From Clostridia bacterium (GTDB taxonomy: Bacteria; Bacillota; Clostridia; Oscillospirales; CAG-272): a stretch of 32,000 bases of DNA. Of the stretch, positions 3,951 through 21,545 are shown piece by piece. Both the position numbers and the translations under genes were made by a program. The stretch covers positions 22,593-54,592 of the forward strand of contig JAFUPC010000033.1 in the NCBI GenBank assembly GCA_017481495.1, written 5' to 3'. The notes beneath the pieces were generated by a model. It searched no databases. It saw only the letters and a program-made list of their open reading frames with translations, and was not told the origin of the DNA. Positions within the stretch are counted from its first letter, which is position 1. Each line of letters begins with the position of its first letter.

Positions 3951-3988
3951 ATATAATATTCTCAAACCACCCAAAAGGAGAATTTATT

Positions 3989-6686: not shown

Positions 6687-6713
6687 TTTTATAATTTTGA
6701 CGGTTGGGTTTCG

Positions 6714-7081: not shown

Positions 7082-7134
7082 AGCAAGAATAAACAAATAA
7101 AATGTACGAAAATAATATTATGAACATAAAACAG

Positions 7135-7163
7135 TTGATTTTTGCGCGGGATTGTGCTATAAT
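7135..7163 (+). promoter_or_regulatory. Promoter P2 (outside the IRs) for the giant gene
   Basis: TTGATT at 7135-7140, a 17-bp spacer, then an extended -10 TGcTATAAT (TATAAT at 7158-7163). About 105 nt of leader precede ATG 7275. Confidence 0.65.
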
Positions 7164-7274
7164 TATTATGTGAAAAATAGGGATAGAATTTCTATCTGAC
7201 CCCTATGAAAACATAAATAGATGCGGACAGAACCGGAAACCGGACACCCGCAAATCCTGAAGGGAGACAATTTT

Positions 7275-10200
7275 ATGAAAGCTTTTTCAATGAAGCGGTT
7301 CACGGCTTTGATGTTGTGCTTGCTCATGCTCATCGGATGTTTGCCGGTGAATGTGTTGGCAGTAGAACCTCGCAGTTCTGAAACCGTTCTTGATGCGGCG
7401 ATTTTCTGCTCTGATGTACATGATAATCCGAGTACAGTCACTTCGGTATTTAATGGCATCAAGTCGGCAGATTCAACATTTGCCCCGACAACAGCTGCAT
7501 TTGTGGGCGATACACAGACAACTGCAAGCAGTGTCACATCTGCGGCACATGAAGTGTATTCTGACGTGCAGTGTATATATGCTTTCGGCAATCATGATGA
7601 CGAGGGCGATTATGGTATCGATGATTTCACCGGCTTGAGTTACGGTGATAGTACTACGAATTATTATATTTATACTATCAGTGAAAATTCGATGAGTAGC
7701 AGTAGTCCAGATACTTCCAATTTTACATCTACTGTCGCAGGTCTTGACAAGACCAAACCGTTATTTATTATTTCTCATATGCCTTTGCACGCACGCAGAG
7801 GTGATAATAACGGTGCGGCGGCATGGTATACTGCCATTTCTGCCGCGGCTAAACAAATGGATATTGCGTTCTTCTGGGCGCATAACCATACTTCTGAAAG
7901 TAATGTTGATACAGCCGCGTATTATATTGCAAAAAATGGTAGTGAAACTATCTCTATTCAGGGCGGTTCTACCGTAACACCCAATTTTACTTATCTGAAT
8001 GCAGGATACATCGATCCTCCGAATACACCTGCACGCAACAAAGTTGCTACTGCAGTTCGTATTTACGATGATAGCATCAATTATACTGTGTATAATGCGG
8101 ACGGTGAATTGAGTGGAACTTATGCGGTTAATGAGACTGTACCGCGTGCGTTTGCTTCTAGTACTGATTCCGGTTCTGGTGACACTGATAACGGCACCAC
8201 CAAGGAAGTCTACGTTCTTGTTGACACCATGACCGTCGGCGAGGATTATCTGATTGCTAACGGCAACACCGACATGGTCACTCTGCTTGGTCAGAGCAGT
8301 GGTTCCGCTGATACTACTACCGCAACGGTGGTTACTAGTGGTGACTACACTTATATCGAGAAAGCCGATTCCGGTTATGTCTGGAATGCTACGGCACATA
8401 CCAATAGCAGTTATTCCAGTTATCCCAGACTGATTAACGCAGAGACTTATGCCATGTACGCAAGTAGCGGTTCTTTGGCATTCAGTAGCAGTTTAACTAG
8501 CACCAGCGGTGCTGTTTATACCCGTTACTGGACATATTCCGATGGTCAGCTCGCTTGTGTTTCTACGAACAGCGACAGTACCACCTATTATCTGACCTAC
8601 AGCGATGGTTACTCTATGACTTCCACCGCTACGGATGGTATCTATATCTACGAGAAGCAGACCATCACGGTCAGTTCCGACGGCACTGTCTCGGGCGGCG
8701 ATTCCTCCGACGGTTCCACCGAGACTGTTGTAGGTGGTGCAACTGTTACCACCGCAGACGATGGTTCTTTCCAGAAGGTATCCACCACGGAAAAGAAGAC
8801 TGTTTATGTGCTGACCAGCAGCATTACTTCCGGTACTTCTTATCTGATTGTCAACGGTAATTCCGCAGGAAGTTATTATGCTCTGGCGAATAACAGCGGT
8901 TCGGTTGCGGCAACCGGTGTAACTGTCAAGACAGACAGCACAATCGGTGCATATATCGAACTTACGGATGCGACCGATGATGAGCTTTGGACTGCGAGCG
9001 GTAGCAGTTCTACTTCTCTGAAAAATGGTAGTTACTACCTGACTTATAGTGGTTCTAACAGTAACTATTCTTTGGACTTGTCAACAAGTTCTACGAGTTC
9101 TACGAGTTGGACATATTCGTCCAATAGATTATCTATTGTTCCTAAAAGAACTACTTATTATCTTGTTTATGATTCTGGTTGGGACATGAGTAGTTCTTCT
9201 GATAATATCTACTTCTACGTTCCCACTGAAGTTGACGGTAGTGTTACCTACTCCGTCACCGCCTCCGACATCGAACACATCTACGATTCGGACGATTCTA
9301 CCGCGGAAACGGAAACCATCGTAGCAAAAACAAATGCTTCTGAAGGCACCTACTCCTATGCAATCGTCTCCGACGAATCCGGTATCATTGACACCGCAAA
9401 TACGACCGGTTCCACCCTCTCATTCACAGGCGAAGCCGGTACTGCGACTGTCCGTGTATACTACACGTTTATTACGAAAGATGGTACAGAGTACAAGATC
9501 TGGGACACCATCACCGTCACCGCAACGTATCCTTATTACACTGTTGACATCACACATAATTCCGATGGTACGGGGGCAGAGGGAACGACTTCCGATTATG
9601 TTTCCGTTACCGATACGATTTCGATCAAAGGCGTGGAAGCAAATGACACATATGACCTTTGGGCGAAAGTATATCTCAACGGTGAAACAGAACAAACTGT
9701 TGAAAGCAGTAAACTGACTTGGAATTCCAATAATACCGCTGTTGCAAAAGTCGATTCTGACGGTAATGTCACATTCATCGGAGAAGAGGGAACTGTACAG
9801 ATTACCGTTTATTACGCATATACCAACAATGAGGGCGAGACCGTACAGGCAACAGACGTTGTGACGTTCTCCGTATCCAAAAATAATTACGTTATCCCCT
9901 CCGACGGCACCAACGACTTCCCCGAATACCCCAACGAAGGCGCAATCCGTTTCGACAAAACTGCGACCGCGGTCGGTAACTTCTCCGAAACCGGTATCGC
10001 ACAGGTTGAACTGTCTATGACGGGTGTACCGTATTCGACCGGTTCCGAGATTGACGTTGTCATTATGCTGGATATGACAGGTTCCATGTCCAGTACAGCA
10101 ATGACTGCGGCAGAAGAATCCGCAATTGCTTTTGCAGAGCAGATCGTCAAAAACGAGGACGGCACTTACAATAACAATCGTATTGCTGTTCTGGCATTCA

Positions 10201-13200
10201 ACAGTGGTAACAGTTCGCCATACACATACTGGGAGTTGGGAACTATCTCCGCTGACCAATGGGATTCTTTCTGCACCGCAGTCCGTGGTGCGAGTGATGA
10301 CCAGGAATCCGGTGGTACACCTTATGACGAAGCTCTTGAGAAGTGTCAGCAAATCCTGACTGCCGCCAAGACCGACGGCATCGGCAATGACCGCCAGCAG
10401 TTCTGCGTTTTCGTATCCGACGGTGGTCCTACATCTTATAAGTACATCACCAACTATGATGCAGTAAAAGCCGGCACTGCTACAAGTTATACCAATTCTA
10501 CTGCAAGTGCAAGCGGTGGTTCCAATCAGTCTGACAGCAACTTTGCAACCATCGCCACTTACACTCACGAGTATTACTCCACGCTGATGAAAGACGACGG
10601 CGTGACGATGTACTCTGTTCTTACCGGTTTGTCGGCAGACGATTATCCGAACTGTACGACGATTCTGCAGAACATCGCTTCTGATTCCAGTAAGGCTTAT
10701 GTAGTTGAAGATGGCAGTGATACGACTGCATTAAAAGGCGCATTTGCGAATATCGCCCTCGAAATCAAACAAGCCGCAACCAATGTTGTTGTCGAAGACA
10801 AGATTGACTCCCACTATACCGTAAACTTCGCACTCCCCACCGGTGTCACAAGTACCGAAGCTGGAATGAGCGAATTTTACATCCAGGCGGTTCAGTATAC
10901 GCTTGACAGTAACAAAGAACGTACTGGTGACCCGGCCGTTCTTGAAAACTTCACGTTCAACGCAGATGGCACGCTTAAGAGCCATACGGTTGACGGTGTA
11001 ACTTGTACAGATTGCACGCATGTAACCATCACTGATGGCATTGTAACCAAGATAGATGGTACATACTTCGATTATGAAGTAACAAGTGAAGGCGAGTTCT
11101 TCAACTGGTATGCAGATAAGCTTGATACAACCGAGCTTGCGCTCCAGTATTTCGTTTATCTTGATAAGTCTGCAGGTTATAATGTAGATGATCAGGTTGC
11201 GGCAGGTACTTACAATACCAACGAATACGCAACGATTACTTACACAAACTTCAATGGTAATAAGTGCCAGCAGGAATTCCCAGTTCCGCAGTTAACTTGG
11301 AATGGCGCACAAGTAACCTATGTGTTTTATTTAGTGAATGAAAATGGTGAGCCTGTTAACCGTGCCGGGAAAGTCGTTCCGTTTGCAGAAGCTGTATATG
11401 TAACAACTCCGTATACATATGCTGTAACTTGGAATGAACTGGAAGGACAAGAAAAAATGCTTGCACAAGATTTGTATGCAAGCGCAAAAGTACCTGACGT
11501 TTATACATTGTATGACACAAAAGCATACTATGAAATCCGAGTATATGAAACAGAATCGGTAGATAATGGAACAACAAAGAATAATGATTATTTCATTATT
11601 GAAGGTTCTACGAGCGGTTTGAAATCGTATGAAACTACCAAAGTGTTTAACACCAAGGCAGATACAAAGTACGATGATTACGGTGCATACTCTGCAACAG
11701 CAGGTACTTATACCTCCACAAAATCCAATACATCTTACGAAGCAACCGTAACTACCGACATCGACTACGCCAATACCACAGTCGCATTCGCTGTCGTCTG
11801 GAAACCCGCACTGGTCGAAGATACCGTTGTCATCGACTTCGGTCTCGATGTCGTCATTGATGTCTACACCAACGACGGTCTCGCGGCAGGTGTTACGGGT
11901 GTTATGCTGAATGCTCCGTCCAGCGTTACCATCAACAGCGGTACATATACAACCGCAGTTGGTTCCGATTCTGTCAAAAGTTCCGATGGCGTCTGGACTG
12001 CATCCAAGGAAAATCTGACCTCCGTCCGCTTCCATCTGAACAACATGGAAATCGACGAACCCGCAGTATTCTACTACGAAGCCGGTGTCAACTACTACAC
12101 CTACGATGCAAGCAACAACGCAACCCTCAACACGACGAATATGTATTCGTCCGTCACAGTCATCCCGGCTACGACGATTTATTATGAGGATGATTTTGTA
12201 GAATTAAGTTCTTATACCATTACGTATGATGAAGCAGGAAATGTGACTTCAACAACTCCTGATGAAAATACTCAGTGGACAAGCATCGGCACAACAATCA
12301 ATGATACCCAGGACGTTGACCGCCCCGGCGTTTCCCAGGCAATGAGCGCGGCATATGATGCCAACAACCTCTACGGCTACGACAGCGCATACGATTCAAT
12401 GAGTACGTATTCTATGGGTAGCGCAAAACAAGTAAAAGTTGATGCAGACCATTTTGCAAATGCGACATTTGAATTTTATGGTACTGGTTTTGATGTAATC
12501 AGTATGACGGACAAAACATCAGGTGCAATAACTGTTACAGTGACTGGTGCCGATGGAACCTCAGAATCTTATTTCGTAAATAACTATTATGGTTATGCTT
12601 ATGAAAATGGAGAATGGGTTGCTGTGGATAGTGCTTCTCCGAATGCGCTTTATCAAGTTCCTGTTATGAAAGTAAGTGGACTGACTTACGGAAAATATAC
12701 AGTTACGATAAAAGCCGCGTATAATTCGATCTTTGATAAGACGGATGATATTGAAGGAGAAAGCAACGATAACGCATATACGTTCATTCTCGATGCAATT
12801 CGTATTTATGACCCCACCGGAAATGTAAATGATATTGCAAACGATGCATACGGAAAAGATGATGAAGCATGGCCGCAGTACATTGAACTGCGTAACAACA
12901 TTATTGCTGCATCGAATTACACTGTAACAGAAAATGAAGATGGAACTGTTACTGTAAGCGGAACAGATTTGAGCGGTGCTATCTTTATTGATGGTAACAA
13001 TGAAACAACGAGTATTGCCGATTATGTAAGTTACGGTCCTAATAATGAACTGTATCTTGATGCCAAACAGTCTGTTGCGTTCAAACTCAATCCGACATAC
13101 GCTTCTAACATTGCAGATGTTCAGATTGGTTTGAAGGTTGCAAATGGTGGTTCTGTAAGTTATAAGATTTATGATTCGGATACAACAGCAGAAACCGCCA

Positions 13201-13775
13201 AGACGATAAACACCGCTACCGATATGTATTACAGTATTAAGGACATTTCGTCCGGAACTGTTGTAATTACAAATACCGGAACAACAAGTGGAATTCTTTC
13301 CATCACAAATATTAAGATTACATATACGCAGAATCCTTATGGAAAATCTGAAAGTGATCTTGATGAGCCGATGACAACAAGCCTTTACATGGATGAAGTC
13401 AGTGCAACCTCTGCATTGATGAGTCTGCGTAGTGTCAGTGTCGAAGAACCGGAAGAAGAAATTTTCGTCCCCGAATCTTTCGATGTCCGCGTTTCTTCCA
13501 AGTCTGTCAAAGTCGGTCAGAAGTTCAGCGTGATCATCACGACCTCCGCTGACGTGGAAAGTGTTTCCGTCAACGGTCAGACCGTCACCAAGTACAAGGA
13601 AAACCGGAAAACCGGTGTCCGTACCTGGTCGGTACAGATGACCGCCGCCGAAGCCGGTGACATGACGATCTCCGCTGTTGCATACGATGCCGACGGCATT
13701 GCAAGCGAAGCGGAAGAAACTGTTGTCACGGTTGCGGAAAAGAACAACAAAAACAACAAGAAAAACAAGAAGTAA
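7275..13775 (+). CDS. Giant (2,166 aa) secreted or lipoprotein-like multidomain surface protein. It comprises a metallophosphoesterase, two tandem ~150-aa modules, Big_2-like Ig domains, a vWA domain and a long beta-rich region.
   Basis: - Start: chosen at ATG 7275, with a GGGAGA SD at 7262-7267. The track start at 7221 has none.
- Signal peptide: MKAFSMKRFTALMLCLLMLIGC, with a possible lipobox LIGC or an SPase I site VLA/VEP.
- Calcineurin-like phosphoesterase motifs: SDVHD, VGDT, GNHDDE, SHMPLH, AHNH (about 7390-8050).
- Tandem modules: they begin VYVLVDTMTVGEDYLIANGN (8205-8660) and VYVLTSSITSGTSYLIVNGN (8800-9225), each with YYLTYS and IY(I/F)Y.
- Big_2-like domain: KLTWNSNNTAVAKVDSDGNVTFIGEEGTVQITV (about 9709-9810).
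- vWA domain: MIDAS-like IDVVIMLDMTGSMS and FVSDGGPT (about 10045-10770).
- C-terminus: no LPXTG and no C-terminal TM. It ends in a basic tail, EKNNKNNKKNKK. Confidence 0.85.
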   Translation: MKAFSMKRFTALMLCLLMLIGCLPVNVLAVEPRSSETVLDAAIFCSDVHDNPSTVTSVFNGIKSADSTFAPTTAAFVGDTQTTASSVTSAAHEVYSDVQCIYAFGNHDDEGDYGIDDFTGLSYGDSTTNYYIYTISENSMSSSSPDTSNFTSTVAGLDKTKPLFIISHMPLHARRGDNNGAAAWYTAISAAAKQMDIAFFWAHNHTSESNVDTAAYYIAKNGSETISIQGGSTVTPNFTYLNAGYIDPPNTPARNKVATAVRIYDDSINYTVYNADGELSGTYAVNETVPRAFASSTDSGSGDTDNGTTKEVYVLVDTMTVGEDYLIANGNTDMVTLLGQSSGSADTTTATVVTSGDYTYIEKADSGYVWNATAHTNSSYSSYPRLINAETYAMYASSGSLAFSSSLTSTSGAVYTRYWTYSDGQLACVSTNSDSTTYYLTYSDGYSMTSTATDGIYIYEKQTITVSSDGTVSGGDSSDGSTETVVGGATVTTADDGSFQKVSTTEKKTVYVLTSSITSGTSYLIVNGNSAGSYYALANNSGSVAATGVTVKTDSTIGAYIELTDATDDELWTASGSSSTSLKNGSYYLTYSGSNSNYSLDLSTSSTSSTSWTYSSNRLSIVPKRTTYYLVYDSGWDMSSSSDNIYFYVPTEVDGSVTYSVTASDIEHIYDSDDSTAETETIVAKTNASEGTYSYAIVSDESGIIDTANTTGSTLSFTGEAGTATVRVYYTFITKDGTEYKIWDTITVTATYPYYTVDITHNSDGTGAEGTTSDYVSVTDTISIKGVEANDTYDLWAKVYLNGETEQTVESSKLTWNSNNTAVAKVDSDGNVTFIGEEGTVQITVYYAYTNNEGETVQATDVVTFSVSKNNYVIPSDGTNDFPEYPNEGAIRFDKTATAVGNFSETGIAQVELSMTGVPYSTGSEIDVVIMLDMTGSMSSTAMTAAEESAIAFAEQIVKNEDGTYNNNRIAVLAFNSGNSSPYTYWELGTISADQWDSFCTAVRGASDDQESGGTPYDEALEKCQQILTAAKTDGIGNDRQQFCVFVSDGGPTSYKYITNYDAVKAGTATSYTNSTASASGGSNQSDSNFATIATYTHEYYSTLMKDDGVTMYSVLTGLSADDYPNCTTILQNIASDSSKAYVVEDGSDTTALKGAFANIALEIKQAATNVVVEDKIDSHYTVNFALPTGVTSTEAGMSEFYIQAVQYTLDSNKERTGDPAVLENFTFNADGTLKSHTVDGVTCTDCTHVTITDGIVTKIDGTYFDYEVTSEGEFFNWYADKLDTTELALQYFVYLDKSAGYNVDDQVAAGTYNTNEYATITYTNFNGNKCQQEFPVPQLTWNGAQVTYVFYLVNENGEPVNRAGKVVPFAEAVYVTTPYTYAVTWNELEGQEKMLAQDLYASAKVPDVYTLYDTKAYYEIRVYETESVDNGTTKNNDYFIIEGSTSGLKSYETTKVFNTKADTKYDDYGAYSATAGTYTSTKSNTSYEATVTTDIDYANTTVAFAVVWKPALVEDTVVIDFGLDVVIDVYTNDGLAAGVTGVMLNAPSSVTINSGTYTTAVGSDSVKSSDGVWTASKENLTSVRFHLNNMEIDEPAVFYYEAGVNYYTYDASNNATLNTTNMYSSVTVIPATTIYYEDDFVELSSYTITYDEAGNVTSTTPDENTQWTSIGTTINDTQDVDRPGVSQAMSAAYDANNLYGYDSAYDSMSTYSMGSAKQVKVDADHFANATFEFYGTGFDVISMTDKTSGAITVTVTGADGTSESYFVNNYYGYAYENGEWVAVDSASPNALYQVPVMKVSGLTYGKYTVTIKAAYNSIFDKTDDIEGESNDNAYTFILDAIRIYDPTGNVNDIANDAYGKDDEAWPQYIELRNNIIAASNYTVTENEDGTVTVSGTDLSGAIFIDGNNETTSIADYVSYGPNNELYLDAKQSVAFKLNPTYASNIADVQIGLKVANGGSVSYKIYDSDTTAETAKTINTATDMYYSIKDISSGTVVITNTGTTSGILSITNIKITYTQNPYGKSESDLDEPMTTSLYMDEVSATSALMSLRSVSVEEPEEEIFVPESFDVRVSSKSVKVGQKFSVIITTSADVESVSVNGQTVTKYKENRKTGVRTWSVQMTAAEAGDMTISAVAYDADGIASEAEETVVTVAEKNNKNNKKNKK

Positions 13776-13789
13776 GGAGGGTACTGACC

Positions 13790-14038
13790 TTGAAAAAGCT
13801 TTACACAAAGCCGGAAATCACATTTGAAGATTTTACCCTCAACACTTCTATTGCGGGAGATTGTGAAGTAAAAACACATACACCTGCTGCTGAACAATGT
13901 GGTATTGCATTCGGTGATATAAACATTTTCTTGGATGGAAATGAAGGCTGTACCACAACAATTATTGATGGATCGAAAGATTTTGATGGTCTTTGTTACC
14001 ATGTACCAACCGAGACCAACAACCTCTTCAACTCCTAA
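13790..14038 (+). CDS. 82-aa acidic 4-Cys peptide with no signal peptide; candidate RiPP precursor
   Basis: TTG start at 13790, 9 nt after a strong SD AGGAGG (13775-13780). Sequence: MKKLYTKPEITFEDFTLNTSIAGDCEVKTHTPAAEQCGIAFGDINIFLDGNEGCTTTIIDGSKDFDGLCYHVPTETNNLFNS. Cys residues are at 25, 37, 54 and 69, and the C-terminal residue is Ser. An intrinsic terminator follows immediately, then the rSAM/PqqD genes. Confidence 0.6.
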   Translation: MKKLYTKPEITFEDFTLNTSIAGDCEVKTHTPAAEQCGIAFGDINIFLDGNEGCTTTIIDGSKDFDGLCYHVPTETNNLFNS

Positions 14039-14062
14039 CCCCTAACCCCCGAAAACCGAACA

Positions 14063-14093
14063 AAGCCGCACCCATCGGCGGTGCGGCTTTTTC
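14063..14093 (+). terminator. Intrinsic terminator after the peptide gene
   Basis: GCCGCACC (14065-14072) pairs with GGTGCGGC (14080-14087), an 8-bp GC-rich stem, followed by TTTTT (14088-14092). AAA on the 5' side makes it potentially bidirectional. Confidence 0.75.
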
Positions 14094-14209
14094 ATTCTTA
14101 AATAGATATGATCGATAACCTCCATTCTGCCGAGAAATACGCGAAATATCCTTGATTTAATGGATAGTGACAGGTTATCGAACATATCTAATGCCGACAC
14201 GAGGTGCTT

Positions 14210-14983
14210 ATGAACGCAAAAACATCCAAAAAACGAAAAGGGAACCGCGCGGTGCTGTGGTGCTGTCTCGGCGCGGTTGTGGTTCTGCTGGGGCTGACCG
14301 TTTATCTGGCACTGACCTCCCGCGGGAATGTCGCTGATGCGGAACCGGACATCGACGGAACGGGCGGTACGCCTGTTGTCACGGCCTCCATTAACACGGC
14401 GGCGGAAGAAATTCCGCTTGTCACCGGGACGAAGCAAACCCTTGTCATCTGCGACATGGGCAGCTATGCGGGTCTGTACATGGAAGACGGCTCCGACGAA
14501 ATCGTCTCCGGCGTGATGATGATCATTGTCGAAAATGTCTCCGCCTCCGACCTGCAATACGCGGAAATTTCGCTCTCCTACGAAGACGGTACGACCACTG
14601 CGTTTTCCGTCTCGACCCTACCGGCGGGAGAAAAAGCGGTGCTTCTCGAAAAGAACCGTCTCTCCTATCCCGGCGATGGGGTGAAACCAACCTCCGCTCT
14701 GGTCTCGAACGTTGTTCTCTTTGACACGCCGATGACCCTGTGCGACAGCGTTCTGGAGATCATCGGCCTGGACGGCGCGCTGAACGTGCGCAACGTCTCG
14801 GACGAAGACCTTGACGGCGACATCTATATCTGCTACAAAAACGCCGCGTCGGATCTGTACTACGGCGGTATCACCTACCGCGTGAAGATCGAGGGCGGTC
14901 TTTCCGCGGGTGAGCTGCGGCAGGTCATGACGGGACATTATACCGTCTCCGGCAGCAAAATCGTCATGGTGGAATGCCGATGA
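14210..14983 (+). CDS. Bitopic membrane protein of unknown function (basic N-terminus, one TM, extracytoplasmic domain with an internal duplication)
   Basis: The start is probably ATG 14210 (the track GTG is at 14204), with GAGG at 14201-14204. The sequence begins MNAKTSKKRKGNRAVLWCCLGAVVVLLGLTVYLAL (the TM). Two similar segments follow: VENVSASDLQYAEISLSY...LPAGEKAVL and VRNVSDEDLDGDIYICYK...LSAGELRQV. The stop overlaps the next gene's start by 10 nt. Confidence 0.6.
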   Translation: MNAKTSKKRKGNRAVLWCCLGAVVVLLGLTVYLALTSRGNVADAEPDIDGTGGTPVVTASINTAAEEIPLVTGTKQTLVICDMGSYAGLYMEDGSDEIVSGVMMIIVENVSASDLQYAEISLSYEDGTTTAFSVSTLPAGEKAVLLEKNRLSYPGDGVKPTSALVSNVVLFDTPMTLCDSVLEIIGLDGALNVRNVSDEDLDGDIYICYKNAASDLYYGGITYRVKIEGGLSAGELRQVMTGHYTVSGSKIVMVECR

Positions 14984-15864
14984 CGAGAGAAACCTGTTAC
15001 CGCATCGGCGGCATTCCGGTATCCGTGCGCATGACGGGCGACGATGTTTTCACGGACGATGGCGTGCTTCTGCCGTTTGCGGAAACCGACACGCCTGCGC
15101 CCGCGCACCGGTACGACATCGTCTGCACCGACACACTGCCAAAACCGACGGGGAACTGCATTTATCATGACCCCGCAAAGCGCGTTTATCTGTCGGATGA
15201 CGGCAAAACGCAGACCCGGTATGTCGGTGCGGTCGGCGAAACCGCCGCCGGCGCATATCTGTGCATTCAGCGAAACGCAAGGGAAACACTTGTCCTTTAC
15301 AAAGGCACCCGCATCACACCGAAAACCGTGCTGTCCTCCCTGGAAGCGGAGCATCTCATCACCGTACACGCGGGGATTCTTTTGCACGCATCGTGTATCC
15401 GATACGAAAACCGCGCGATCCTGTTCACCGCCCCCTCCGGAACCGGAAAATCGACCCAGGCGGATCTCTGGAGCGCCCACCGTCACGCCGAACTCATCAA
15501 CGGCGACCGCGCGGCGGTCTTTTCCCCGGAAACCGACGGCGGCATCCGTGTCCGCGGCATTCCGTATGCCGGAAGCTCCGGTGTCGCACGGTGCGCCGAT
15601 CTGCCGCTTTGGGCGATCGTCTATCTCTCACAGGCAAAGGAAAACACCGTCCGCCGTCTCACGGGACAGGCCGCGTTCCGCGCGGTCTGGGAAGGATGCA
15701 GTGTCAATACCTGGTCAAAAGACGATGTCACCGCCGCCGCCGACACGGTGATGCGCCTCGTCTCGGGCGTTCCCGTCCTGTCGCTTGCCTGCACCAAAGA
15801 CGTCCGCGCCGTGGAAACGCTGGAACACGCGCTGGAAACCGACCGGAAAGGAGTCAACGTTTAA
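14974..15864 (+). CDS. HPr-kinase-like P-loop protein (HprK C-terminal-domain-related)
   Basis: 296 aa. The segment LLHASCIRYENRAILFTAPSGTGKSTQADLW resembles the HPr kinase/phosphorylase nucleotide-binding segment (hG..v...g.gvLi.G.SG.GKS). The gene is embedded between the membrane protein and the rSAM gene. Confidence 0.6.
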   Translation: MPMTRETCYRIGGIPVSVRMTGDDVFTDDGVLLPFAETDTPAPAHRYDIVCTDTLPKPTGNCIYHDPAKRVYLSDDGKTQTRYVGAVGETAAGAYLCIQRNARETLVLYKGTRITPKTVLSSLEAEHLITVHAGILLHASCIRYENRAILFTAPSGTGKSTQADLWSAHRHAELINGDRAAVFSPETDGGIRVRGIPYAGSSGVARCADLPLWAIVYLSQAKENTVRRLTGQAAFRAVWEGCSVNTWSKDDVTAAADTVMRLVSGVPVLSLACTKDVRAVETLEHALETDRKGVNV

Positions 15865-15869
15865 CCGAT

Positions 15870-16997
15870 ATGCAGAAAAAACAAACCGAACCCTATCTTT
15901 CCACCTATCTGCACAGCAAAGGCGCGAAGCTCGGTCTTCCCATCGGCGGGAATTTCGAGCTGACCTCCCGCTGTAACTTCCGCTGTCCGATGTGTTACGT
16001 CCACAATGCCGAAAACGACAGCGAAGCCAAACGGCGGGAGCTTTCCGCCGCAGAATGGATTTCCCTTGCCAAACAAGCGCGCGACCGCGGTATGGTCTTT
16101 GCACTGCTCACCGGCGGGGAACCGTTCGTCAGGCGCGATTTCTTTGAAATTTATCACGCCATGAAAGAAATGGGGATCCTCGTTTCCATCAATTCAAACG
16201 GGTCGCTTCTGGACGGCGAGATCCGCGAAAAGCTGTTTGAAGACCCGCCGTTCCGCGTGAATGTCTCCCTTTACGGGGGATGCGAGGAGACCTACCGTTC
16301 CATGTGCGGACAACCTGTCTTTGAAAAGGTCGTTGACAATATCCGTACTCTGAAAGAACGCGGCATTGATGTCCGGCTGAATCTGTCGATCACGCCGTAT
16401 AACTGTCATGACATCGGGAAAATCTATGAGATCGCAAGCGCGCTGAATGTCCACGTCAAGGCGACCGCCTATATGTACCCGCCCATCCGCGTAAACGGCG
16501 AACAATACGGAACCGGTGTCCGTCTGTCTCCGTCGGAAGCGGCGAAATATATGGTCTCCTGGGACAAAATGCGCTTCACAAAGGAAGAATTTCTCGCGCG
16601 TGCGGAAAATATGCGCAATCTTTGTTCTGTGAACACGCGGGAATGTGCGGCGGATATGGAGGAGGGGGTGTCCTGCCGTGCGGGTTCCTCCGCGTTCTGG
16701 ATCTGCTGGGACGGGTGGATGCTCCCCTGCGGAATGATGCCGGGGCCTGCGGTTGATCCTCTGCGCGACGGTTTCGATGCCGCGTGGGACGAATTGCGGC
16801 AGAAGACCGCGGAGATCCGGATGCCGCACGGGTGCGGAACCTGTCCGAAACGCGATGTCTGTCCCGTGTGCGCGGCGGTGTGTGTGACCGAAACCGGTGC
16901 ATTCGACCGCACGCCAGAATTTGTCTGTGCATCCACAGATGCACTTCTCACCGAAACCGAACTTGCAGCAAAGGAGATGGAACCCCATGCAGATTAA
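15870..16997 (+). CDS. Radical SAM / SPASM-domain peptide-maturase-like enzyme
   Basis: The true start is ATG 15870 (MQKKQTEPYL...). The 578-aa track ORF from 15261 overlaps the previous gene in another frame. It has the radical SAM cluster motif TSRCNFRCPMCY. The C-terminal auxiliary-cluster Cys pattern is CRAGSSAFWICWDGWMLPC ... CGTCPKRDVCPVCAAVC, which is SPASM-type (CxxCx5Cx2-3C). Confidence 0.85.
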   Translation: MQKKQTEPYLSTYLHSKGAKLGLPIGGNFELTSRCNFRCPMCYVHNAENDSEAKRRELSAAEWISLAKQARDRGMVFALLTGGEPFVRRDFFEIYHAMKEMGILVSINSNGSLLDGEIREKLFEDPPFRVNVSLYGGCEETYRSMCGQPVFEKVVDNIRTLKERGIDVRLNLSITPYNCHDIGKIYEIASALNVHVKATAYMYPPIRVNGEQYGTGVRLSPSEAAKYMVSWDKMRFTKEEFLARAENMRNLCSVNTRECAADMEEGVSCRAGSSAFWICWDGWMLPCGMMPGPAVDPLRDGFDAAWDELRQKTAEIRMPHGCGTCPKRDVCPVCAAVCVTETGAFDRTPEFVCASTDALLTETELAAKEMEPHAD

Positions 16998-17247
16998 AAA
17001 AGAATTCGTCCGGCGCGACGTCGCCGGAGAGACGATCCTCGTCCCGTTCGGAAAAACCATTTACGACGCAAACGGACTGTTCGTTTTGAGCGAACTCGGC
17101 GCCTTTTTGTGGGACAGGATCCCGGATGCGGAGAATGAGGAAACGCTGGTGCGCGCGGTACTGGAAGAATATGAGGTGGACGAAGCCACCGCACGGGCGG
17201 ATATCGCGGAATTTCTTGGAAAGCTCCGGGAGATGGGAATTCTGTGA
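16987..17247 (+). CDS. PqqD-family protein (stand-alone RiPP recognition element)
   Basis: 86 aa from ATG 16987, with an AAGGAG SD at 16971-16976. It overlaps the rSAM stop by 11 nt. Sequence: MQIKKEFVRRDVAGETILVPFGKTIYDANGLFVLSELGAFLWDRIPDAENEETLVRAVLEEYEVDEATARADIAEFLGKLREMGIL. This fits the typical PqqD pattern (..LN..g..iW..l.......l...l...Y.vd......Dv..Fl..L...gll). Confidence 0.85.
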   Translation: MQIKKEFVRRDVAGETILVPFGKTIYDANGLFVLSELGAFLWDRIPDAENEETLVRAVLEEYEVDEATARADIAEFLGKLREMGIL

Positions 17248-17273
17248 AAACCCCGGACTGAACCGAAAAAACA

Positions 17274-17323
17274 CCCGGAACATTTGGCAGAAAGTAAAGA
17301 TTCTGTGAAGTTCCGGGATTTTT
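17274..17323 (+). terminator. Probable terminator ending the cassette
   Basis: CCCGGAAC (17274-17281) pairs with GTTCCGGG (17310-17317), followed by ATTTTT. The loop is long (28 nt), so confidence is moderate. Confidence 0.45.
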
Positions 17324-17325
17324 CG

Positions 17326-17354
17326 TTGCTATTTTTCCGGAATTGTGGTATAAT
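17326..17354 (+). promoter_or_regulatory. Promoter of the Rrf2 regulator gene
   Basis: TTGCTA at 17326-17331, a 17-bp spacer, then an extended -10 TGgTATAAT (TATAAT at 17349-17354). Confidence 0.6.
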
Positions 17355-17405
17355 ATTCAGGTCAATGATAAAAAAATCGGCAGACGGAAGGGGAGGTGCG
17401 ATATC

Positions 17406-17831
17406 ATGATGATTTCCACGAAAGGGAAGTATGCCCTGCAGACAATGGTCGATTTAGCACAGCACGGCGGCTGTGACAGCTCAGGTGACTGCGTGTCCCT
17501 GAAAGCCATTGCCGAGCGGCAGAACATTTCCATGAAATATCTGGAAGCGATCGTCGCACTGCTCAACCGCGGAGGACTCGTCAGAAGCACGCGCGGTAAG
17601 GACGGCGGATACCGTCTCGCGCGGCCTGCCGGGGAAATCACCGTTGCGGAGGTCATGGCAATGACAGAGGGGTCGCTTGCGCCCGTTTCCTGCCTGGATA
17701 CGTGTTCCGATGGACAATGTGTCCATGCCGATACCTGCCTGACCCTGCCGCTGTGGCAGAAGCTCGATGCGATGATCGACGGATACCTGTCCGGCATCAC
17801 GATACAGGATATTGTCAACCGCAATGTCTGA
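17406..17831 (+). CDS. Rrf2-family transcriptional regulator (IscR/CymR-like)
   Basis: 141 aa from ATG 17406, with a GGGGAGG SD upstream. The N-terminus MMISTKGKYALQTMVDLAQH is the Rrf2 wHTH. Cys residues in PVSCLDTCSDGQCVHADTC could ligate an Fe-S cluster. The gene lies directly upstream of nifS-nifU. Confidence 0.85.
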   Translation: MMISTKGKYALQTMVDLAQHGGCDSSGDCVSLKAIAERQNISMKYLEAIVALLNRGGLVRSTRGKDGGYRLARPAGEITVAEVMAMTEGSLAPVSCLDTCSDGQCVHADTCLTLPLWQKLDAMIDGYLSGITIQDIVNRNV

Positions 17832-17901
17832 ATGTCAACCATATTGCTTGACTGTCAACCTGACGGTTTACAATAAAATCCCCATTCAAGAATTATTTAC
17901 A

Positions 17902-17982
17902 AATTCCTACACGAAATATAGGAATTAACCCTTGACAAAATGCGCATTCTGTGGTATAATTCCTACTGTAAGAATAGGAATT
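17902..17982 (+). promoter_or_regulatory. nifS promoter flanked and overlapped by two copies of an AATTCCTA-N9-TAGGAATT operator
   Basis: Operator 1 is AATTCCTA (17902-17909) / TAGGAATT (17919-17926). The promoter is TTGACA (17932-17937), a 17-bp spacer and TGgTATAAT (TATAAT at 17955-17960). Operator 2 is AATTCCTA (17958-17965, overlapping the -10) / TAGGAATT (17975-17982); it extends to a 10-bp arm, ATAATTCCTA/TAGGAATTAT. Confidence 0.7.
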
Positions 17983-18010
17983 ATACCATTGTTCATTGGA
18001 GGTAACATCC

Positions 18011-19198
18011 ATGTTTGTATATGCAGACAACGCGGCGACGACAAAAATGAGTCCGACCGCAATCAAGGCCATGACGGAAGCGATGGAAACGGTCTGGGGC
18101 AACCCGTCCAGTCTTCACACCACCGGCCAGACGGCAAAGGAAGCACTGGAAAACGCGAGGGGGACGATCGCTTCGCTGCTCGGCGCGGAACCGCGGGAGA
18201 TCTATTTCACCTCCGGCGGCTCGGAAGCGGACAACCAGGCGATCCTTTCGGCGGCGATCAATGGTGCAAAGAAAAACAAATAGTACATCATTTCCACCGC
18301 ATTTGAACATCATGCGGTTCTCCATACGCTGAAAAAGCTGGAAAAGCAGGGTTATGAGATCGAACTTCTGGACGTGCATGAAAACGGCATCGTCACAGCG
18401 GAACAGGTCAGAGGAGCCATCCGTCCCGATACCGCGCTTGTCACTGTGATGTATGCAAACAATGAGATCGGTACCATCCAGCCCATCCGGGAAATCGGTG
18501 CAGTATGCCGCGAGATGGGTGTTCCGTTTCACACGGATGCTGTGCAGGCGGTCGGGCACATTCCGGTCAACGTCAAAGAGGACAACATTGATATGCTGTC
18601 TGTTTCCGCACACAAGTTCCACGGTCCCAAGGGCATCGGCGTTCTGTACGCAAAACGCGGCACCATCCTCTCCAACGTCATCGAAGGCGGCGCACAGGAG
18701 CGCGGCAAACGTGCGGGCACGGAAAATATGCCGGCGATCGTCGCAATGGCGGCGGCAATGAAAGAAGCCGTTGAAACGATGGATGCAGTGAACGCAAAGA
18801 TCATCCCGATGCGTGAAAAGCTGATCGAGGGTCTTGAAAAGATCCCGCACAGCAAGCTCAACGGCGACAGAAATAGCCGCGTTCCGGGTACGGTCAACTT
18901 CTGCTTTGAGGGCATTGAGGGCGAATCTCTGCTTCTGATGCTTGATGAGGAGGGCATTGAAGCATCCTCCGGTTCTGCCTGCACCTCCGGCTCTCTCGAC
19001 CCCAGCCATGTTTTGCTGGCACTCGGTATGCCGCATGAGGTCGCACACGGTTCTCTGCGTCTCTCCATCTGCGAAAACAACACCGATGAGGAGATCGACC
19101 ACATTCTGCGTGTCGTTCCCGAAGTCGTTTCTTATCTGCGCAATATGTCTCCCGTCTGGGAAGCACTCGAATCCGGCGAAAAGCCGCATCTTATCTGA
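18011..19198 (+). pseudogene. nifS: Cysteine desulfurase (NifS/IscS class V aminotransferase) interrupted by one in-frame TAG at 18281-18283
   Basis: The start is ATG 18011, with a GGAGG SD at 17998-18002. The two track ORFs (17996-18283 and 18374-19198) are in the same frame. The interval between them translates without stops as [39 protein letters not shown], which is canonical NifS sequence. Also present are [10 protein letters not shown] (PLP Lys) and SSGSACTSG (catalytic Cys). Confidence 0.8.
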
Positions 19199-19221
19199 TC
19201 TGGGAAAGGAAAATCAAAGTT

Positions 19222-19668
19222 ATGGCATTATACAGCGAAAAGGTCATGGATCACTTCAAGAATCCCCGCAACGTCGGTAAAATGGAAGATGCAGACGGTA
19301 TCGGCGAGGTCGGCAACGCAAAGTGCGGCGACATCATGAAGATGTACCTTAAAATCGAGGACGGCATCATCGTGGATGTAAAGTTCAATACGTTCGGATG
19401 CGGCAGTGCGATCGCAACATCGTCGATGGCGACCGAGATGATCAAGGGTAAGTCCGTCGATGAAGCGCTCACACTGTCCAACAAGGCGGTCGTCGAAGCA
19501 CTGGACGGTCTGCCCGCACATAAGATCCACTGTTCTGTGCTTGCGGAAGAAGCCGTCAAAGCCGCGATCAAGGATTATTACGACAAAAACGGCATCGAAT
19601 ATGACCACGAGATGTTCTGTGAGGGTGACTGCGCGCACTGTCATGAACACGATGCGGACGGTCTGTGA
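19222..19668 (+). CDS. nifU: Fe-S cluster assembly scaffold NifU/IscU
   Basis: 148 aa. MALYSEKVMDHFKNPRNVG...GNAKCGDIM...FGCGSAIATSS...HCSVLA carries the three conserved IscU Cys residues. Confidence 0.92.
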   Translation: MALYSEKVMDHFKNPRNVGKMEDADGIGEVGNAKCGDIMKMYLKIEDGIIVDVKFNTFGCGSAIATSSMATEMIKGKSVDEALTLSNKAVVEALDGLPAHKIHCSVLAEEAVKAAIKDYYDKNGIEYDHEMFCEGDCAHCHEHDADGL

Positions 19669-19752
19669 TCGTTGTATCATCAAGCAAGAGCCCGGCGAAT
19701 ATACAAAAACTTTACAGAAGCGAGAAAAAATTTACAAAATCTTGAAAAAGAA

Positions 19753-19781
19753 TTGACAAAACTGAACAAAAGGTGTATAAT
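19753..19781 (+). promoter_or_regulatory. Promoter of the CBM-like protein gene
   Basis: TTGACA at 19753-19758, a 17-bp spacer, TATAAT at 19776-19781. Confidence 0.6.
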
Positions 19782-19816
19782 AGAAATACCCAAAACGAAA
19801 GTGAGGTTTATCTCCT

Positions 19817-20539
19817 ATGAAACATCTTTTCAAACTTACCCTCAGCATTGTTCTTGTCATGCTCCTCTGCACGGCAGGACTCTCCGCCTTTTATTCCGAA
19901 GGTACCGAAGTCTACTTCCTCGAATGTGAGGACGGTGTCATCACCGGTGCTGCAAAGGATTACAAGGACGGCAATATCCAGGACGTCGGCATCGCATCGG
20001 GCGGCAAGATCGTCGGTCTCGGCGGCGTCAGTGATGCACCGCAGATGGCATCGTGGGTCACGTTTGCCGATCTTGAGATCCCGGTGAGCGGCGTTTACGC
20101 GGTCACATTCTGCTACGACACCAACGCAGGCGACACGAAGAAGGCTGACATCGTCATCGACGACGTCCGTTACAACGTGCCGATCAACATGGACGAGCTT
20201 CCCGAGCTTTACGGCGAAGAATTCCGTGACTACACGCTGGAGATCGAACTGTCCGCCGGCAAGCATACCTTTGCCGTTACCACGGCCGAGGACTTCAACC
20301 GCGACAGCGCGGCAGGCCCCGTTGTCAAGAGTGTCAATGCCGACTACATCCGCATCGCACTGCTTGCTGAGATCGCTGAGCCGGAACCTGCTCCCGAAAC
20401 CCCTGCGGACGAAGCTCCTGCAGAAGAAGTCGTTGAATCTCTTCCCGAAGAAGCGACCCCTGTCACCGCAGATATGGGTATGATGGCATCCCTGCTTGCA
20501 TTCGCGGCAGCGGCTGTCGTTCTTGTCAAGAGAAAATAA
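19817..20539 (+). CDS. Secreted CBM6/35-like carbohydrate-binding-module protein with a Pro/Glu/Ala linker and a C-terminal TM anchor
   Basis: 240 aa. The signal peptide is MKHLFKLTLSIVLVMLLCTAGLSA. The beta-sandwich-like core ends in ADYIRIAL. A PEPAPETPADEAPAEE linker follows, then MGMMASLLAFAAAAVVLVKRK (a hydrophobic helix plus a basic tail). There is no LPXTG. Confidence 0.55.
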   Translation: MKHLFKLTLSIVLVMLLCTAGLSAFYSEGTEVYFLECEDGVITGAAKDYKDGNIQDVGIASGGKIVGLGGVSDAPQMASWVTFADLEIPVSGVYAVTFCYDTNAGDTKKADIVIDDVRYNVPINMDELPELYGEEFRDYTLEIELSAGKHTFAVTTAEDFNRDSAAGPVVKSVNADYIRIALLAEIAEPEPAPETPADEAPAEEVVESLPEEATPVTADMGMMASLLAFAAAAVVLVKRK

Positions 20540-20552
20540 TTGCACAACAAAT

Positions 20553-20580
20553 AAGGGGTGCCGTGCGGCATCCCTTTGTT
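20553..20580 (+). terminator. Intrinsic terminator
   Basis: AAGGGGTGCC-gtgc-GGCATCCCTT hairpin (one G-U pair), followed by TTTGTT. Confidence 0.65.
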
Positions 20581-20615
20581 ATACAACTGATTATACAGGA
20601 AAGCGAGGATTTCAG

Positions 20616-21434: not shown

Positions 21435-21489
21435 TTCACGATGAATGTTACATCGGGGATTCTGATGAATTTTTATAAAAAGCATAAAC

Positions 21490-21545
21490 AAACGGACTGC
21501 TGTACTGGTGCTGAAAATGCACCGCGCAAACGGCAGTCCGTTTTT
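21490..21545. terminator. Bidirectional terminator between convergent genes
   Basis: AAACGGACTGC (21490-21500) pairs with GCAGTCCGTTT (21533-21543), an 11-bp perfect stem. It encloses a second hairpin, GGTGC-tgaaaa-GCACC. T-runs are present on both strands. Confidence 0.6.

Follow-up and report, generated by a model that had tools for sequence, protein, structure and literature searches.

The closest described counterparts of the locus analyzed here belong to several families of peptide maturation systems. In the kinase-bearing lasso peptide systems of Firmicutes (paeninodin PadeA/B1/K and pseudomycoidin PsmA/K/N), a YxxPxL leader motif is recognized by PqqD-like B1 proteins (PMC10368454), and HprK-type kinases, which require the leader and are stimulated by the RRE, phosphorylate a terminal Ser (PMC6993621, PMC10368454). 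Sactipeptides and ranthipeptides, e.g., SkfA/SkfB and ruminococcin C, are thioether RiPPs made by radical SAM (rSAM)/SPASM enzymes. QhpC, the QHNDH gamma-subunit, is a four-Cys, acidic, random-coil peptide that is cross-linked by the rSAM enzyme QhpD and forms a subunit of a large periplasmic enzyme (PMC7876137). The SynChlorMet (SCM) cassette of NCBIfam/TIGRFAMs (ScmC, ScmD, ScmE, ScmF) combines a ScmC-family protein with rSAM/SPASM and PqqD proteins and is not known to have an identified precursor, while in the PQQ system the peptide PqqA, of about 23 aa, is found with PqqD and PqqE.

The analyzed window, a 32,000-nt stretch of a Clostridia bacterium contig (JAFUPC010000033.1), carries a short ORF (13790..14038, + strand, stop 14036-14038) that encodes an 82-aa peptide from a TTG start codon. 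The sequence AGGAGG at 13775-13780, 9 nt upstream of the TTG, constitutes a Shine-Dalgarno (SD) sequence and overlaps the TAA stop codon (13773-13775) of the preceding ORF. The peptide contains 13 Asp+Glu, 5 Lys and no Arg residues, with Cys at positions 25, 37, 54 and 69, preceded at -3 by A, A, N and D, respectively. The maximum Kyte-Doolittle mean over 15 residues is 0.95, i.e., there is no signal peptide-like segment. Directly downstream lies an intrinsic terminator-like hairpin with a T run (14062..14093, +), whose stem (14062-14090) has 11 pairs, 7 of them G-C; its dG is -21.2 kcal/mol (z = -4.5), and none of 200 shuffled sequences folded as well. The initial annotation had described these features from the sequence alone, and what it observed was confirmed in every detail.

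To determine whether the ORF is a real gene, we searched for homologues. Thirty-nine full-length homologues of 76-91 aa were found, with E-values down to 1e-23 apart from a 99%-identical copy. A profile search identified 1349 representative clusters (50% identity, E <= 1e-3), and 80 species-representative genomes carry the gene, with multiple divergent copies per genome. The family has so far been seen only in gut and rumen Clostridia assemblies. Between the window and a near-identical strain (locus L004), the first 25 codons differ by a single synonymous change. These results place the ORF far beyond chance.

Comparison of 139 unique peptides of this family showed three regions. The putative leader, residues 1-22 (13790..13855; MKKLYTKPEITFEDFTLNTSIA), includes a conserved N-terminal MKKxYxKPxIxFExF block and is the most conserved part of the peptide, with near-invariant M1, K2, K3, Y5, P8, I10, F15, I21 and A22; its boundary is inferred. 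It contains the motif Y5-x-x-P8-x-I10, and YxxPx[ILVMF] is present in 136/139 peptides. The variable core, residues 23-68 (13856..13993), includes Cys25 (13862-13864), Cys37 (13898-13900), Cys54 (13949-13951) and the invariant Phe47. The loops between the Cys vary in sequence and length (11-17, 14-23 and 5-23 residues), while the distances from the start to Cys1 and from Cys4 to the end are fixed. All four Cys are (near-)invariant. The C-terminal block, residues 69-82 (13994..14035; CYHVPTETNNLFNS), is conserved as a CYHVP...LFxS tail, with Cys69, Tyr70, His71 (83%), Pro73, Phe80 and Ser82 (14033-14035), and has 12-14 residues after Cys4. Ser is the last residue in 134/139 peptides and penultimate in the other five, which end in Ser-Leu, so a strictly terminal Ser is not essential.

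The leader and core differ sharply in their conservation between strains. Between loci whose rSAM enzymes are >=95% identical, the median identity was 92% for the leader and 39% for the core, and between the window and L004 the nucleotide identity was 99% and 46%, respectively. An AlphaFold2 model of the peptide based on a 39-sequence alignment had a pLDDT of 53, a pTM of 0.17 and no secondary structure, as expected for a substrate, which excludes an autonomous folded mini-protein.

The gene preceding the peptide gene (7221..13775, +) encodes a giant secreted protein of 2184 aa, counted from the first ATG; the likely start is at 7275 (MKAFSMKRF...). It has a signal peptide with a possible lipobox (LIGC), both read by eye, a Metallophos-like domain (approximately nt 7401-7892; 23.1 bits against a cut-off of 21.5) and a VWA domain (approximately nt 10053-10577; 1.9e-9). 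Its C-proximal module (12138..13460; aa ∼1640-2080) is the only part present in essentially all homologues, and a profile of this module found no relative in Pfam or among PDB sequences. In 73 of 87 loci ascertained through the peptide, a homologue of the giant protein (1200-3300 aa) ends 9-32 nt upstream of the peptide gene, and a strong SD is present in nearly all loci. In the reciprocal test, with the conserved module as bait, 75/75 assessable loci had the peptide gene behind it. The pairs also occur in tandem (locus L077), and 17 of the 87 loci are orphan pairs, without maturase genes within 6 kb; for most of their MAGs no full cluster was seen among the hits. Behind the orphan pairs only locus L033 has an alternative maturase, a different rSAM enzyme, the other downstream genes being unrelated. 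The orphan peptides keep the leader, Cys and Ser features.

A sigma-70-like promoter candidate (7135..7163, +; TTGATT-17-TATAAT with TG; 10 of 12 matches, extended -10), supported by consensus match only, lies upstream of the giant gene, whereas no + strand promoter-like site was found in 13000-13790 or 14094-14210. The hairpin, which is 97% identical in L004, follows 15/17 orphan pairs but only 18/53 full clusters. It would therefore end a giant-plus-peptide unit ahead of the maturase operon. An Rfam search of the whole window found no known RNA element.

Downstream lies a tight operon of four genes. The first (14210..14983, +) encodes a 257-aa protein with a basic N-terminus and one N-terminal TM helix, the bulk of which is predicted (topology read by eye) to be outside the cell; it is conserved in 48 loci and has no Pfam, NCBIfam or PDB relative. 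The second (14974..15864, +), whose start overlaps the end of the first, encodes a 296-aa ScmC-like P-loop protein with a predicted HprK/PEPCK fold and invariant H138, FTAPSGTGKSTQA (151-163) and N176-G177-D178-R179. Its matches to ScmC (5e-7) and HprK_rel_A (8e-4) are below cut-off, but its homologues carry Pfam PF27840 (ScmC). It has no sequence-level PDB match, but its model (pLDDT 96) matched PEPCK (1e-7) and HprK/P (1ko7, 1kkm and 1jb1, about 1e-5; TM on target up to 0.55) in a Foldseek search. The third gene (15870..16997, +) encodes a 375-aa radical SAM/SPASM enzyme (Radical_SAM 1.3e-23) with C35x3C39x2C42, GGEP and the seven-Cys SPASM motif plus an upstream Cys; C269x12G282x4C287, C322x2C325x5C331x2C334 and C353, i.e., a complete SPASM domain, are conserved in 47 sequences. 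Its closest solved structure is the thioether synthase SkfB (5e-12), and anSME is among its structural relatives. The fourth gene (16987..17247, +), overlapping the end of the third, encodes an 86-aa PqqD-family RRE (Pfam PqqD 6e-16), whose best NCBIfam hits are the lasso chaperones lasso_PqqD_Bac (2.7e-8) and lasso_PqqD_Strm (6e-8), both below cut-off, and not the PQQ PqqD.

This gene set follows the peptide in 53 of the 87 peptide-ascertained loci (the remainder being the 17 orphans, 4 partial clusters and 13 loci cut by contig ends) and in 44/44 giant-ascertained loci with enough sequence. The only other conserved downstream gene encodes NTP_transf_5, found next to PqqD in 14 loci, about a quarter of the clusters. 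No conserved protease or exporter was identified. No member of the cluster reached a curated family cut-off: StsB scored 78.5 bits (cut-off 625), ScmC 29.3 (125), ScmE 75.3 (400), ScmF 66.2 (400), PqqE 72.8 (381) and mycofactocin rSAM 67 (265), and the GeoRSP and WgkB scores were likewise far below; no PqqA or PqqD equivalog was hit, the peptide matched no family, and no other sacti- or ranthipeptide maturase model came near its cut-off. A search for defence systems with PADLOC gave only a generic viperin/rSAM-core match. Literature searches on ScmC, SynChlorMet, PF14907, rSAM enzymes combined with PqqD and HPr kinase, and Oscillospiraceae RiPPs found no description of the system or of the pairing with the giant protein.

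The interpretation given in the initial annotation was only partly supported. The conserved gene is indeed adjacent to rSAM/SPASM and PqqD genes, and the proposed division into a leader of about 20 residues, bound by the PqqD-like protein, and a Cys-containing core agrees with the observed conservation; that the Cys would be cross-link donors remains an inference. However, the leader, which had been compared to the start of PqqA, matches the lasso YxxPxL motif over its whole length, so PqqA is the weaker comparison. The hhalign alignment to the lasso leader is too short for statistical proof (P 0.008, probability 5%), and we regard it as a resemblance, not as proof of homology. The suggested NxxC/DxxC spacing is conserved only at Cys4 ([N/D]GxC, 70/83); the -3 position is variable at Cys2 and Cys3 and is Ala at Cys1, so NxxC is not a repeated feature. 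The terminator, thought to belong to the peptide gene alone and to yield an excess of precursor transcript, is not the peptide's own. Finally, no role had been offered for the C-terminal Ser, which was not connected to the HprK-fold protein, and the giant partner had been missed.

We therefore consider it somewhat more likely than not (probability about 0.55) that the ORF encodes a RiPP-type precursor peptide for a previously undescribed radical-SAM maturation system of gut Clostridia. In this model, the giant and peptide genes are transcribed together from about 7135-7163 to the hairpin, and the position of the SD on the giant's stop codon would couple their synthesis. The leader would be bound through Y5-x-x-P8-x-I10 by the PqqD-type RRE, as lasso B1 proteins bind YxxPxL leaders, and the peptide delivered to the rSAM/SPASM enzyme, which would modify the core at the four Cys, most likely forming intramolecular thioether cross-links, as SkfB, QhpD and the ranthipeptide synthases do. 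The ScmC-like protein would use a nucleotide to modify the tail, most likely by phosphorylation of the Ser82 side chain, and NTP_transf_5, where present, could decorate it further, as PadeK/PsmK and PsmN do in lasso systems. The cross-linked peptide would then act together with the giant protein as a small subunit or ligand, for which the QHNDH gamma-subunit is the precedent, and the single-pass membrane protein may help on the outside of the cell. The gene layout, the enzyme class of the rSAM protein, the fold (from a predicted model) and motifs of the ScmC-like protein and the obligate pairing with the giant gene are established by our analysis, whereas the joint transcript, the leader binding, the cross-linking chemistry, the substrate of the ScmC-like protein and the functional link to the giant protein are inferred.

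Several findings speak against parts of this model. No modification has been observed, and all the chemistry is by analogy. In the ScmC-like protein the His and P-loop residues (H138...G156, G158, K159, S160) have the same His-to-Lys spacing as the lasso kinase motif (H-G-G-G-K-S-D-D), but N176-G177 followed by D178 replaces the catalytic Asp-Asp pair, mutation of which kills PsmK; kinase activity is therefore uncertain. It is unexplained how a cytoplasmic peptide without a signal sequence would reach a secreted protein, given the absence of a conserved protease or exporter. The window/L004 pair suggested strict co-variation of the peptide core and the giant protein, but this was rejected by wider sampling: peptide and giant sequences do not co-vary more than peptide and rSAM do (Spearman 0.45 for both), and the two can be swapped independently (locus pairs L134/L135 and L125/L137), which weakens a specific-interaction model. 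The 17 orphan pairs without a maturase, the five peptides that end in Ser-Leu, the short lasso-leader alignment and the failure of any protein of the cluster to reach a curated family cut-off also count against it.

Of the alternatives, a conventional diffusible RiPP survives best, although we consider it unlikely. The peptide would be a sacti- or ranthipeptide-like bacteriocin or a signalling peptide, its hypervariable core reflecting strain competition or signalling specificity, and the giant gene only a transcriptional neighbour or a receptor or immunity-type accessory. The leader/core pattern, the rSAM/SPASM plus RRE set, the independent variation of peptide and giant sequences and the terminator, a common RiPP layout after the precursor, are in agreement with this view. 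Against it are the lack of a conserved protease or exporter near the cluster, the adjacency to the giant gene, which is far tighter than the link to the maturases, and the conserved 14-residue C-terminal block, unusual for a free antimicrobial core.

Two further alternatives are each improbable. In the first, the peptide is an unmodified small partner of the giant protein, e.g., a cytoplasmic escort for its basic C-terminal tail or a small subunit with disulfides or a bound metal, and the operon acts on something else, possibly the giant protein itself, as anSME-type SPASM enzymes act on proteins. The orphan pairs, the acidity of the peptides (mean net charge -4.6), the basic amphipathic tails of many giant proteins and the structural relation to anSME are in its favour. 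However, the peptide carries a lasso-type RRE-binding motif and the cluster a free-standing RRE, the features kept by orphan peptides imply that they are still under the same constraints, the peptide has no predicted fold, its Cys are not in CxxC pairs, and maturases follow in all 44 giant-ascertained loci with enough sequence. In the second, the rSAM enzyme performs other chemistry, such as C-C or C-O cross-links at Phe47, Tyr70 or His71, or epimerisation, and the Cys form disulfides or bind metal afterwards. The invariance of F47, Y70 and F80, the 83% conservation of H71 and the many cross-link types catalyzed by SPASM enzymes with RREs (WgkB, 2.8e-21, and PqqE are among the NCBIfam hits) are consistent with this, but the Cys are the most strictly conserved core residues and act as a fixed framework for variable loops, as in thioether peptides, and the closest solved relative is a sactisynthase, although none of this is decisive. 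A precursor of a redox cofactor, like PqqA or mycofactocin MftA, with CYH...FNS as the processed part, is very unlikely despite the rSAM/SPASM and PqqD-like proteins and the conserved Tyr-containing C-terminus, since PqqE and mycofactocin rSAM scores are far below cut-off, no other PQQ or mycofactocin genes are conserved, and a cofactor precursor would not need a 45-residue strain-hypervariable core or multiple divergent copies per genome.

The family is abundant in human and ruminant gut Clostridia (besides the peptide clusters, 2935 ScmC-like protein clusters and 489 giant-module loci in one metagenome scan), yet it has no Pfam or NCBIfam model. It provides a clear candidate substrate for a ScmC-family/rSAM/PqqD system. 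The giant protein differs between otherwise 99%-identical strains, which points to a role of the pair in strain-specific surface biology, such as adhesion, recognition or competition in the gut. It is possible, although less likely than not, that the peptide is not a free natural product but a cross-linked, tail-modified small subunit or ligand made one-for-one with a giant, strain-variable surface protein. Such a RiPP as protein subunit, in a non-redox, cell-surface setting and with loops that diversify between strains, would define a new functional class for rSAM-modified peptides and give a handle on a widespread family of giant gut-bacterial surface proteins.

Compared with the known systems, the locus shares with PqqA/PqqD/PqqE an aromatic-x-K-P-x-hydrophobic start, a PqqD-family partner and an rSAM/SPASM enzyme, but PqqA has a conserved Glu/Tyr pair and no Cys framework. 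It resembles the SCM cassette in its combination of proteins, but has one rSAM gene, not two, occurs in different taxa and has a peptide that can be pointed to as substrate. Like QhpC, the peptide is a four-Cys, acidic, largely unstructured polypeptide of about 80 residues (the mature length in QhpC) with an N-terminal leader, encoded with an rSAM/SPASM enzyme and a large extracytoplasmic protein; however, the conserved Trp for CTQ, the protease QhpE, the ABC exporter QhpF and the flavoprotein QhpG are not conserved here, the partner is a non-redox VWA/metallophosphoesterase-like giant, and the core is hypervariable. With sactipeptides and ranthipeptides it has in common an rSAM with a full SPASM domain, RRE-type recognition, a Cys-framework peptide with variable loops and a Firmicutes and gut origin, but it has a separate RRE, an additional HprK-fold enzyme and a membrane protein, a conserved C-terminal block and the preceding giant gene, and no conserved protease or exporter. 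Finally, the kinase-bearing lasso systems share with it the MKKx[Y/W]xxPx[L/I] leader, a free-standing PqqD-like RRE, an HprK-fold P-loop protein, a precursor ending in Ser and, in some clusters, an NTP_transf_5-type nucleotidyltransferase. The B2 leader peptidase, the lasso cyclase (the C macrolactam synthetase) and the ABC exporter are missing here, and the peptide is twice as long, with its four Cys and its giant partner gene; the locus joins, in an unusual combination, lasso-type recognition and tail-modification parts with an rSAM/SPASM enzyme in place of the lasso cyclase.

The ORF proved to be exactly as the initial annotation described it: it lies at 13790-14038 on the + strand, has a TTG start and encodes 82 aa. 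The sequence AGGAGG is found at 13775-13780, 9 nt upstream of the start codon, and overlaps the TAA stop codon (13773-13775) of the preceding 2184-aa ORF. The peptide contains 13 acidic residues, 5 Lys and Cys at positions 25, 37, 54 and 69, with A, A, N and D at the respective -3 positions. No hydrophobic segment is present, the maximum 15-residue Kyte-Doolittle mean being 0.95. The hairpin at 14062-14090, together with its T run, folds at -21.2 kcal/mol (z = -4.5; 0 of 200 shuffles fold as well), and a search against Rfam identified no known RNA family anywhere in the window.

The peptide matches no Pfam or NCBIfam model, but it is a real gene of a large, unnamed family. It has 39 full-length homologues of 76-91 aa in metagenome assemblies. 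A profile search of 1.84 billion representative proteins identified 1349 clusters at E <= 1e-3 and 470 at <= 1e-10; the 150 best hits listed are 73-111 aa long, so none of them is a fusion to a large protein. A scan of species-representative genomes yielded 80 loci, all in MAGs of gut or rumen Clostridia (Oscillospiraceae, Faecousia, Lachnospiraceae, Erysipelotrichaceae, Ruminococcus, Anaerovoracaceae), several of which carry 2-3 copies.

Among 139 unique peptides from 163 loci, the length is 70-92 aa, 121 have exactly four Cys, 136 carry YxxPx[ILVMF] near the N-terminus, 138 carry the CY[H/D/N...] tail, and 134 end in Ser and the other five in Ser-Leu. The latter peptides form a sub-clade (L014, L091-L094 in our numbering of the homologous loci) ending in ...LFNSL, in which the conserved Ser is penultimate; this argues that any modification targets the Ser side chain, not the free carboxylate. 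In the first set of 85 unique peptides, the (near-)invariant positions are M1, K2, K3, Y5, P8, I10, F15, I21, A22, C25, C37, F47, C54, C69, Y70, P73, F80 and S82. The distances from the start to Cys1 (23-28) and from Cys4 to the end (12-14) are nearly fixed, while the three loops between the Cys residues vary in length (11-17, 14-23 and 5-23) and in sequence. AlphaFold2 run with the family alignment predicted no fold (pLDDT 53, pTM 0.17).

Four genes follow the peptide gene in a tight, partly overlapping operon. The first (14210-14983) encodes a 257-aa protein with a basic N-terminus and one TM helix, for which no relatives were found in Pfam, NCBIfam or PDB sequences. The second (14974-15864) encodes a 296-aa P-loop protein with weak hits to ScmC (5e-7) and HprK-related kinase A (8e-4), both below cut-off. 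Its homologues carry Pfam PF27840 (ScmC), and its structural model (pLDDT 96) matches the PEPCK and HprK/P fold. The third (15870-16997) encodes an rSAM with CX3CX2C, GGEP and a complete, family-wide conserved SPASM motif; its closest solved relative is the sactisynthase SkfB (5e-12), followed by MoaA, PqqE, anSME and SuiB. The fourth (16987-17247) encodes an 86-aa PqqD protein (Pfam 6e-16), whose best NCBIfam hits are lasso-peptide PqqD chaperones. No member reaches a curated equivalog cut-off, so the system belongs to no named family.

Of 87 loci ascertained from the peptide, 53 carry the whole set, 17 are orphans, 4 are partial and 13 are cut by contig ends. In metagenome loci ascertained from the giant protein described below, 44 of 44 with enough sequence carry it. 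In 14 loci (L006, L008, L010, L012, L016, L019, L035, L039, L043, L050, L055, L063, L085 and L087) an NTP_transf_5 (PF14907) nucleotidyltransferase of about 410 aa sits next to PqqD, 3.3-6.5 kb after the peptide start. It is absent from the window, and it recalls the nucleotidyltransferase PsmN of kinase-bearing lasso clusters. No protease or exporter is conserved. In the window, Rrf2/IscR-like, NifS-like and NifU-like genes (17343-19668) lie directly after PqqD, with a perfect sigma-70-like promoter at 17932-17960. Iron-sulfur assembly genes thus sit beside a three-cluster rSAM, but this arrangement, shared with locus L004 (from a near-identical strain), is not found at loci L002 or L006, and is therefore probably coincidental.

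The gene in front of the peptide was overlooked in the initial annotation. In 73 of 87 loci a huge ORF (1239-3315 aa when complete) ends 9-32 nt before the start codon of the peptide, and most of the exceptions are cut by contig ends. The copy in the window has a signal peptide, a Metallophos-like domain, a VWA domain and Ig-like regions. The part shared by all homologues is a module of ∼440 aa near the C-terminus (window aa 1640-2080), for which no family was found in Pfam or PDB sequences. This module, and not the peptide, was used as bait against metagenome contigs and identified 489 relatives; of the 80 loci kept, all 75 assessable ones have a peptide of this family directly behind the giant ORF.

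Seventeen loci are giant+peptide pairs with no maturase within 6 kb. One of these orphan pairs (L033) is followed, 414-1769 nt after the peptide start, by a different rSAM/SPASM protein (451 aa, only 27% identical to the rSAM of the window) with an N-terminal extension of ∼100 aa, which may be an alternative maturase with a fused recognition domain. Locus L077 has two pairs in tandem: the order is peptide, giant, peptide (peptides at 95-325 and 7435-7635), so giant+peptide pairs can occur in tandem arrays. The pairing with the giant gene is therefore tighter than the pairing with the enzymes. Among the giant homologues (e.g. those of L001, L006, L008, L012 and L020, and of L058, L074, L075 and L078), many end in a basic amphipathic tail with an aromatic end (...KTIKSLLGWLFK, ...FGWFR) and a few end in dockerin-like repeats, while the copy in the window ends in KNNKNNKKNKK. 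The peptides are acidic (mean net charge -4.6).

The strong hairpin with T run follows 15 of 17 orphan pairs but only 18 of 53 full clusters. No promoter-like site was found in the 790 nt before the peptide, whereas a good one (TTGATT-17-TATAAT with TG) lies at 7135-7163, before the giant gene; these are consensus scans and not evidence of function. The hairpin, which the initial annotation had taken for the peptide's own terminator, is therefore best read as the terminator of a giant+peptide bicistron, and in this window it also separates that unit from the enzyme operon.

A 319-aa ORF (5727-6686, - strand) has several repeats of a Cys-rich unit (W.C.C.CG...C.C) and a C-terminal AP2-like segment (YINFRKKRYYLGSF), and is unrelated to the finding. 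A 155-aa ORF (5050-5517, - strand) looks like only the C-terminal ATPase part of an ABC exporter (LSGGEKQR, ILDEATS) and is possibly a gene fragment. Pyruvate formate-lyase and its activating enzyme, another radical-SAM protein (721-3773), followed by a MerR-type regulator (3908-4990), are ordinary anaerobe housekeeping genes, identified by eye from the translations.

To examine variation between strains, the window was compared with L004, which is 98.5-99.6% identical to it at the DNA level on both flanks (5686-7360 and 14190-24181). From just after the signal peptide or lipobox of the giant protein (about nt 7360) to 13443, about 330 nt before the giant's stop codon, no nucleotide similarity was detectable. 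This looks like allele replacement by recombination at fixed boundaries. Within the peptide gene, nucleotide identity to L004 is 99% for leader codons 1-25 (one synonymous change), 46% for core codons 26-65 and 85% for the C-terminal block, and it is 97% for the hairpin and T run. About 86 nt between the terminator and the TM gene (14104-14189) have no counterpart in L004, where the blastn alignments join at 9178-9180; this is an insertion or deletion in an otherwise ∼98% identical region, and no promoter-like site was found in it.

The same pattern holds generally: in 49 locus pairs with >=95% identical rSAM, the median identity is 92% for the leader, 39% for the core and 68% for the last 650 aa of the giant protein. 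However, the two variable parts are not strictly coupled. Loci L134 and L135 share a 98% identical giant C-terminus but their peptides are 58% identical, while L125 and L137 show the reverse, and the rank correlation of peptide with giant (0.45) equals that of peptide with rSAM. A strict co-variation of peptide core and giant protein, suggested by the first comparison, was therefore rejected.

The gene layout, the conservation pattern, the enzyme folds and motifs and the obligate pairing are established by these analyses, whereas the mechanism that we consider most likely is inferred from them, without chemical data. In this view, the peptide would be co-transcribed with the giant gene and their translation coupled, and the leader (residues 1 to ∼22) would be bound by the PqqD RRE. 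The rSAM/SPASM enzyme would then introduce cross-links, most likely thioethers, at the four Cys, and the ScmC-like protein would carry out a nucleotide-dependent modification of the conserved tail, most likely phosphorylation of Ser82, elaborated by NTP_transf_5 in some clusters. The product would act with the giant surface protein. This proposal is weakened by the altered acidic motif of the ScmC-like protein, the lack of an export route, the independent variation of peptide and giant, and the existence of orphan pairs. The interpretation offered in the initial annotation is partly supported.

In the literature searched, no paper describes ScmC, the SynChlorMet cassette, an rSAM+PqqD+HprK-type combination, or this peptide. 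A large human-microbiome RiPP survey reports thousands of uncharacterised precursor families but does not describe this one (PMC11953309). RRE-guided rSAM-modified peptides are already known; the peptide family, the enzyme combination and above all the obligate pairing with a giant strain-variable secreted protein are new. We put at about one in three the chance that the system is a functionally new class, a RiPP-type peptide serving as a subunit or ligand of a surface protein.

Of the known systems, PqqA, whose resemblance was pointed out in the initial annotation, is the weaker comparison; PqqE scores 73 bits against a cut-off of 381. The NxxC motif, also invoked there, is conserved only at Cys4. 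Firmicutes lasso leaders read MKKDWTIPTLEVL... or MTYNKPSFEKI... (PMC7533575), and the consensus of the present peptide family, MKKxYTKPEIxFExF, has the same form. In an hhalign comparison, residues 1-23 were aligned to the complete 21-residue leader of a paeninodin-like precursor, both ending in AG (38% identity, P 0.008), although the sequences are too short for a homology call (probability 5%).

HprK-family lasso kinases (PadeK, PsmK) phosphorylate the side chain of the C-terminal Ser of the precursor. They act on the linear precursor, need the leader and are stimulated by the RRE, after which a nucleotidyltransferase (PsmN) adds hexose (PMC6993621, PMC10368454). Their motif is H148-G163-G166-G168-K169-S170-D186-D187. 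The ScmC-like family has invariant H138, G156, G158, K159 and S160 with the same His-to-Lys spacing, but has N176-G177-D178 where the Asp-Asp pair should be, so kinase activity is plausible but not assured. In the case of the QHNDH gamma-subunit QhpC, the protease, the exporter and the conserved Trp of that system have no counterpart here. The rSAM QhpD cross-links QhpC by three Cys-to-Asp/Glu thioethers, and QhpC then serves as a subunit of a large periplasmic enzyme encoded in the same operon (PMC7876137). This is the closest precedent for an rSAM-modified peptide whose job is to be part of a big extracytoplasmic protein.
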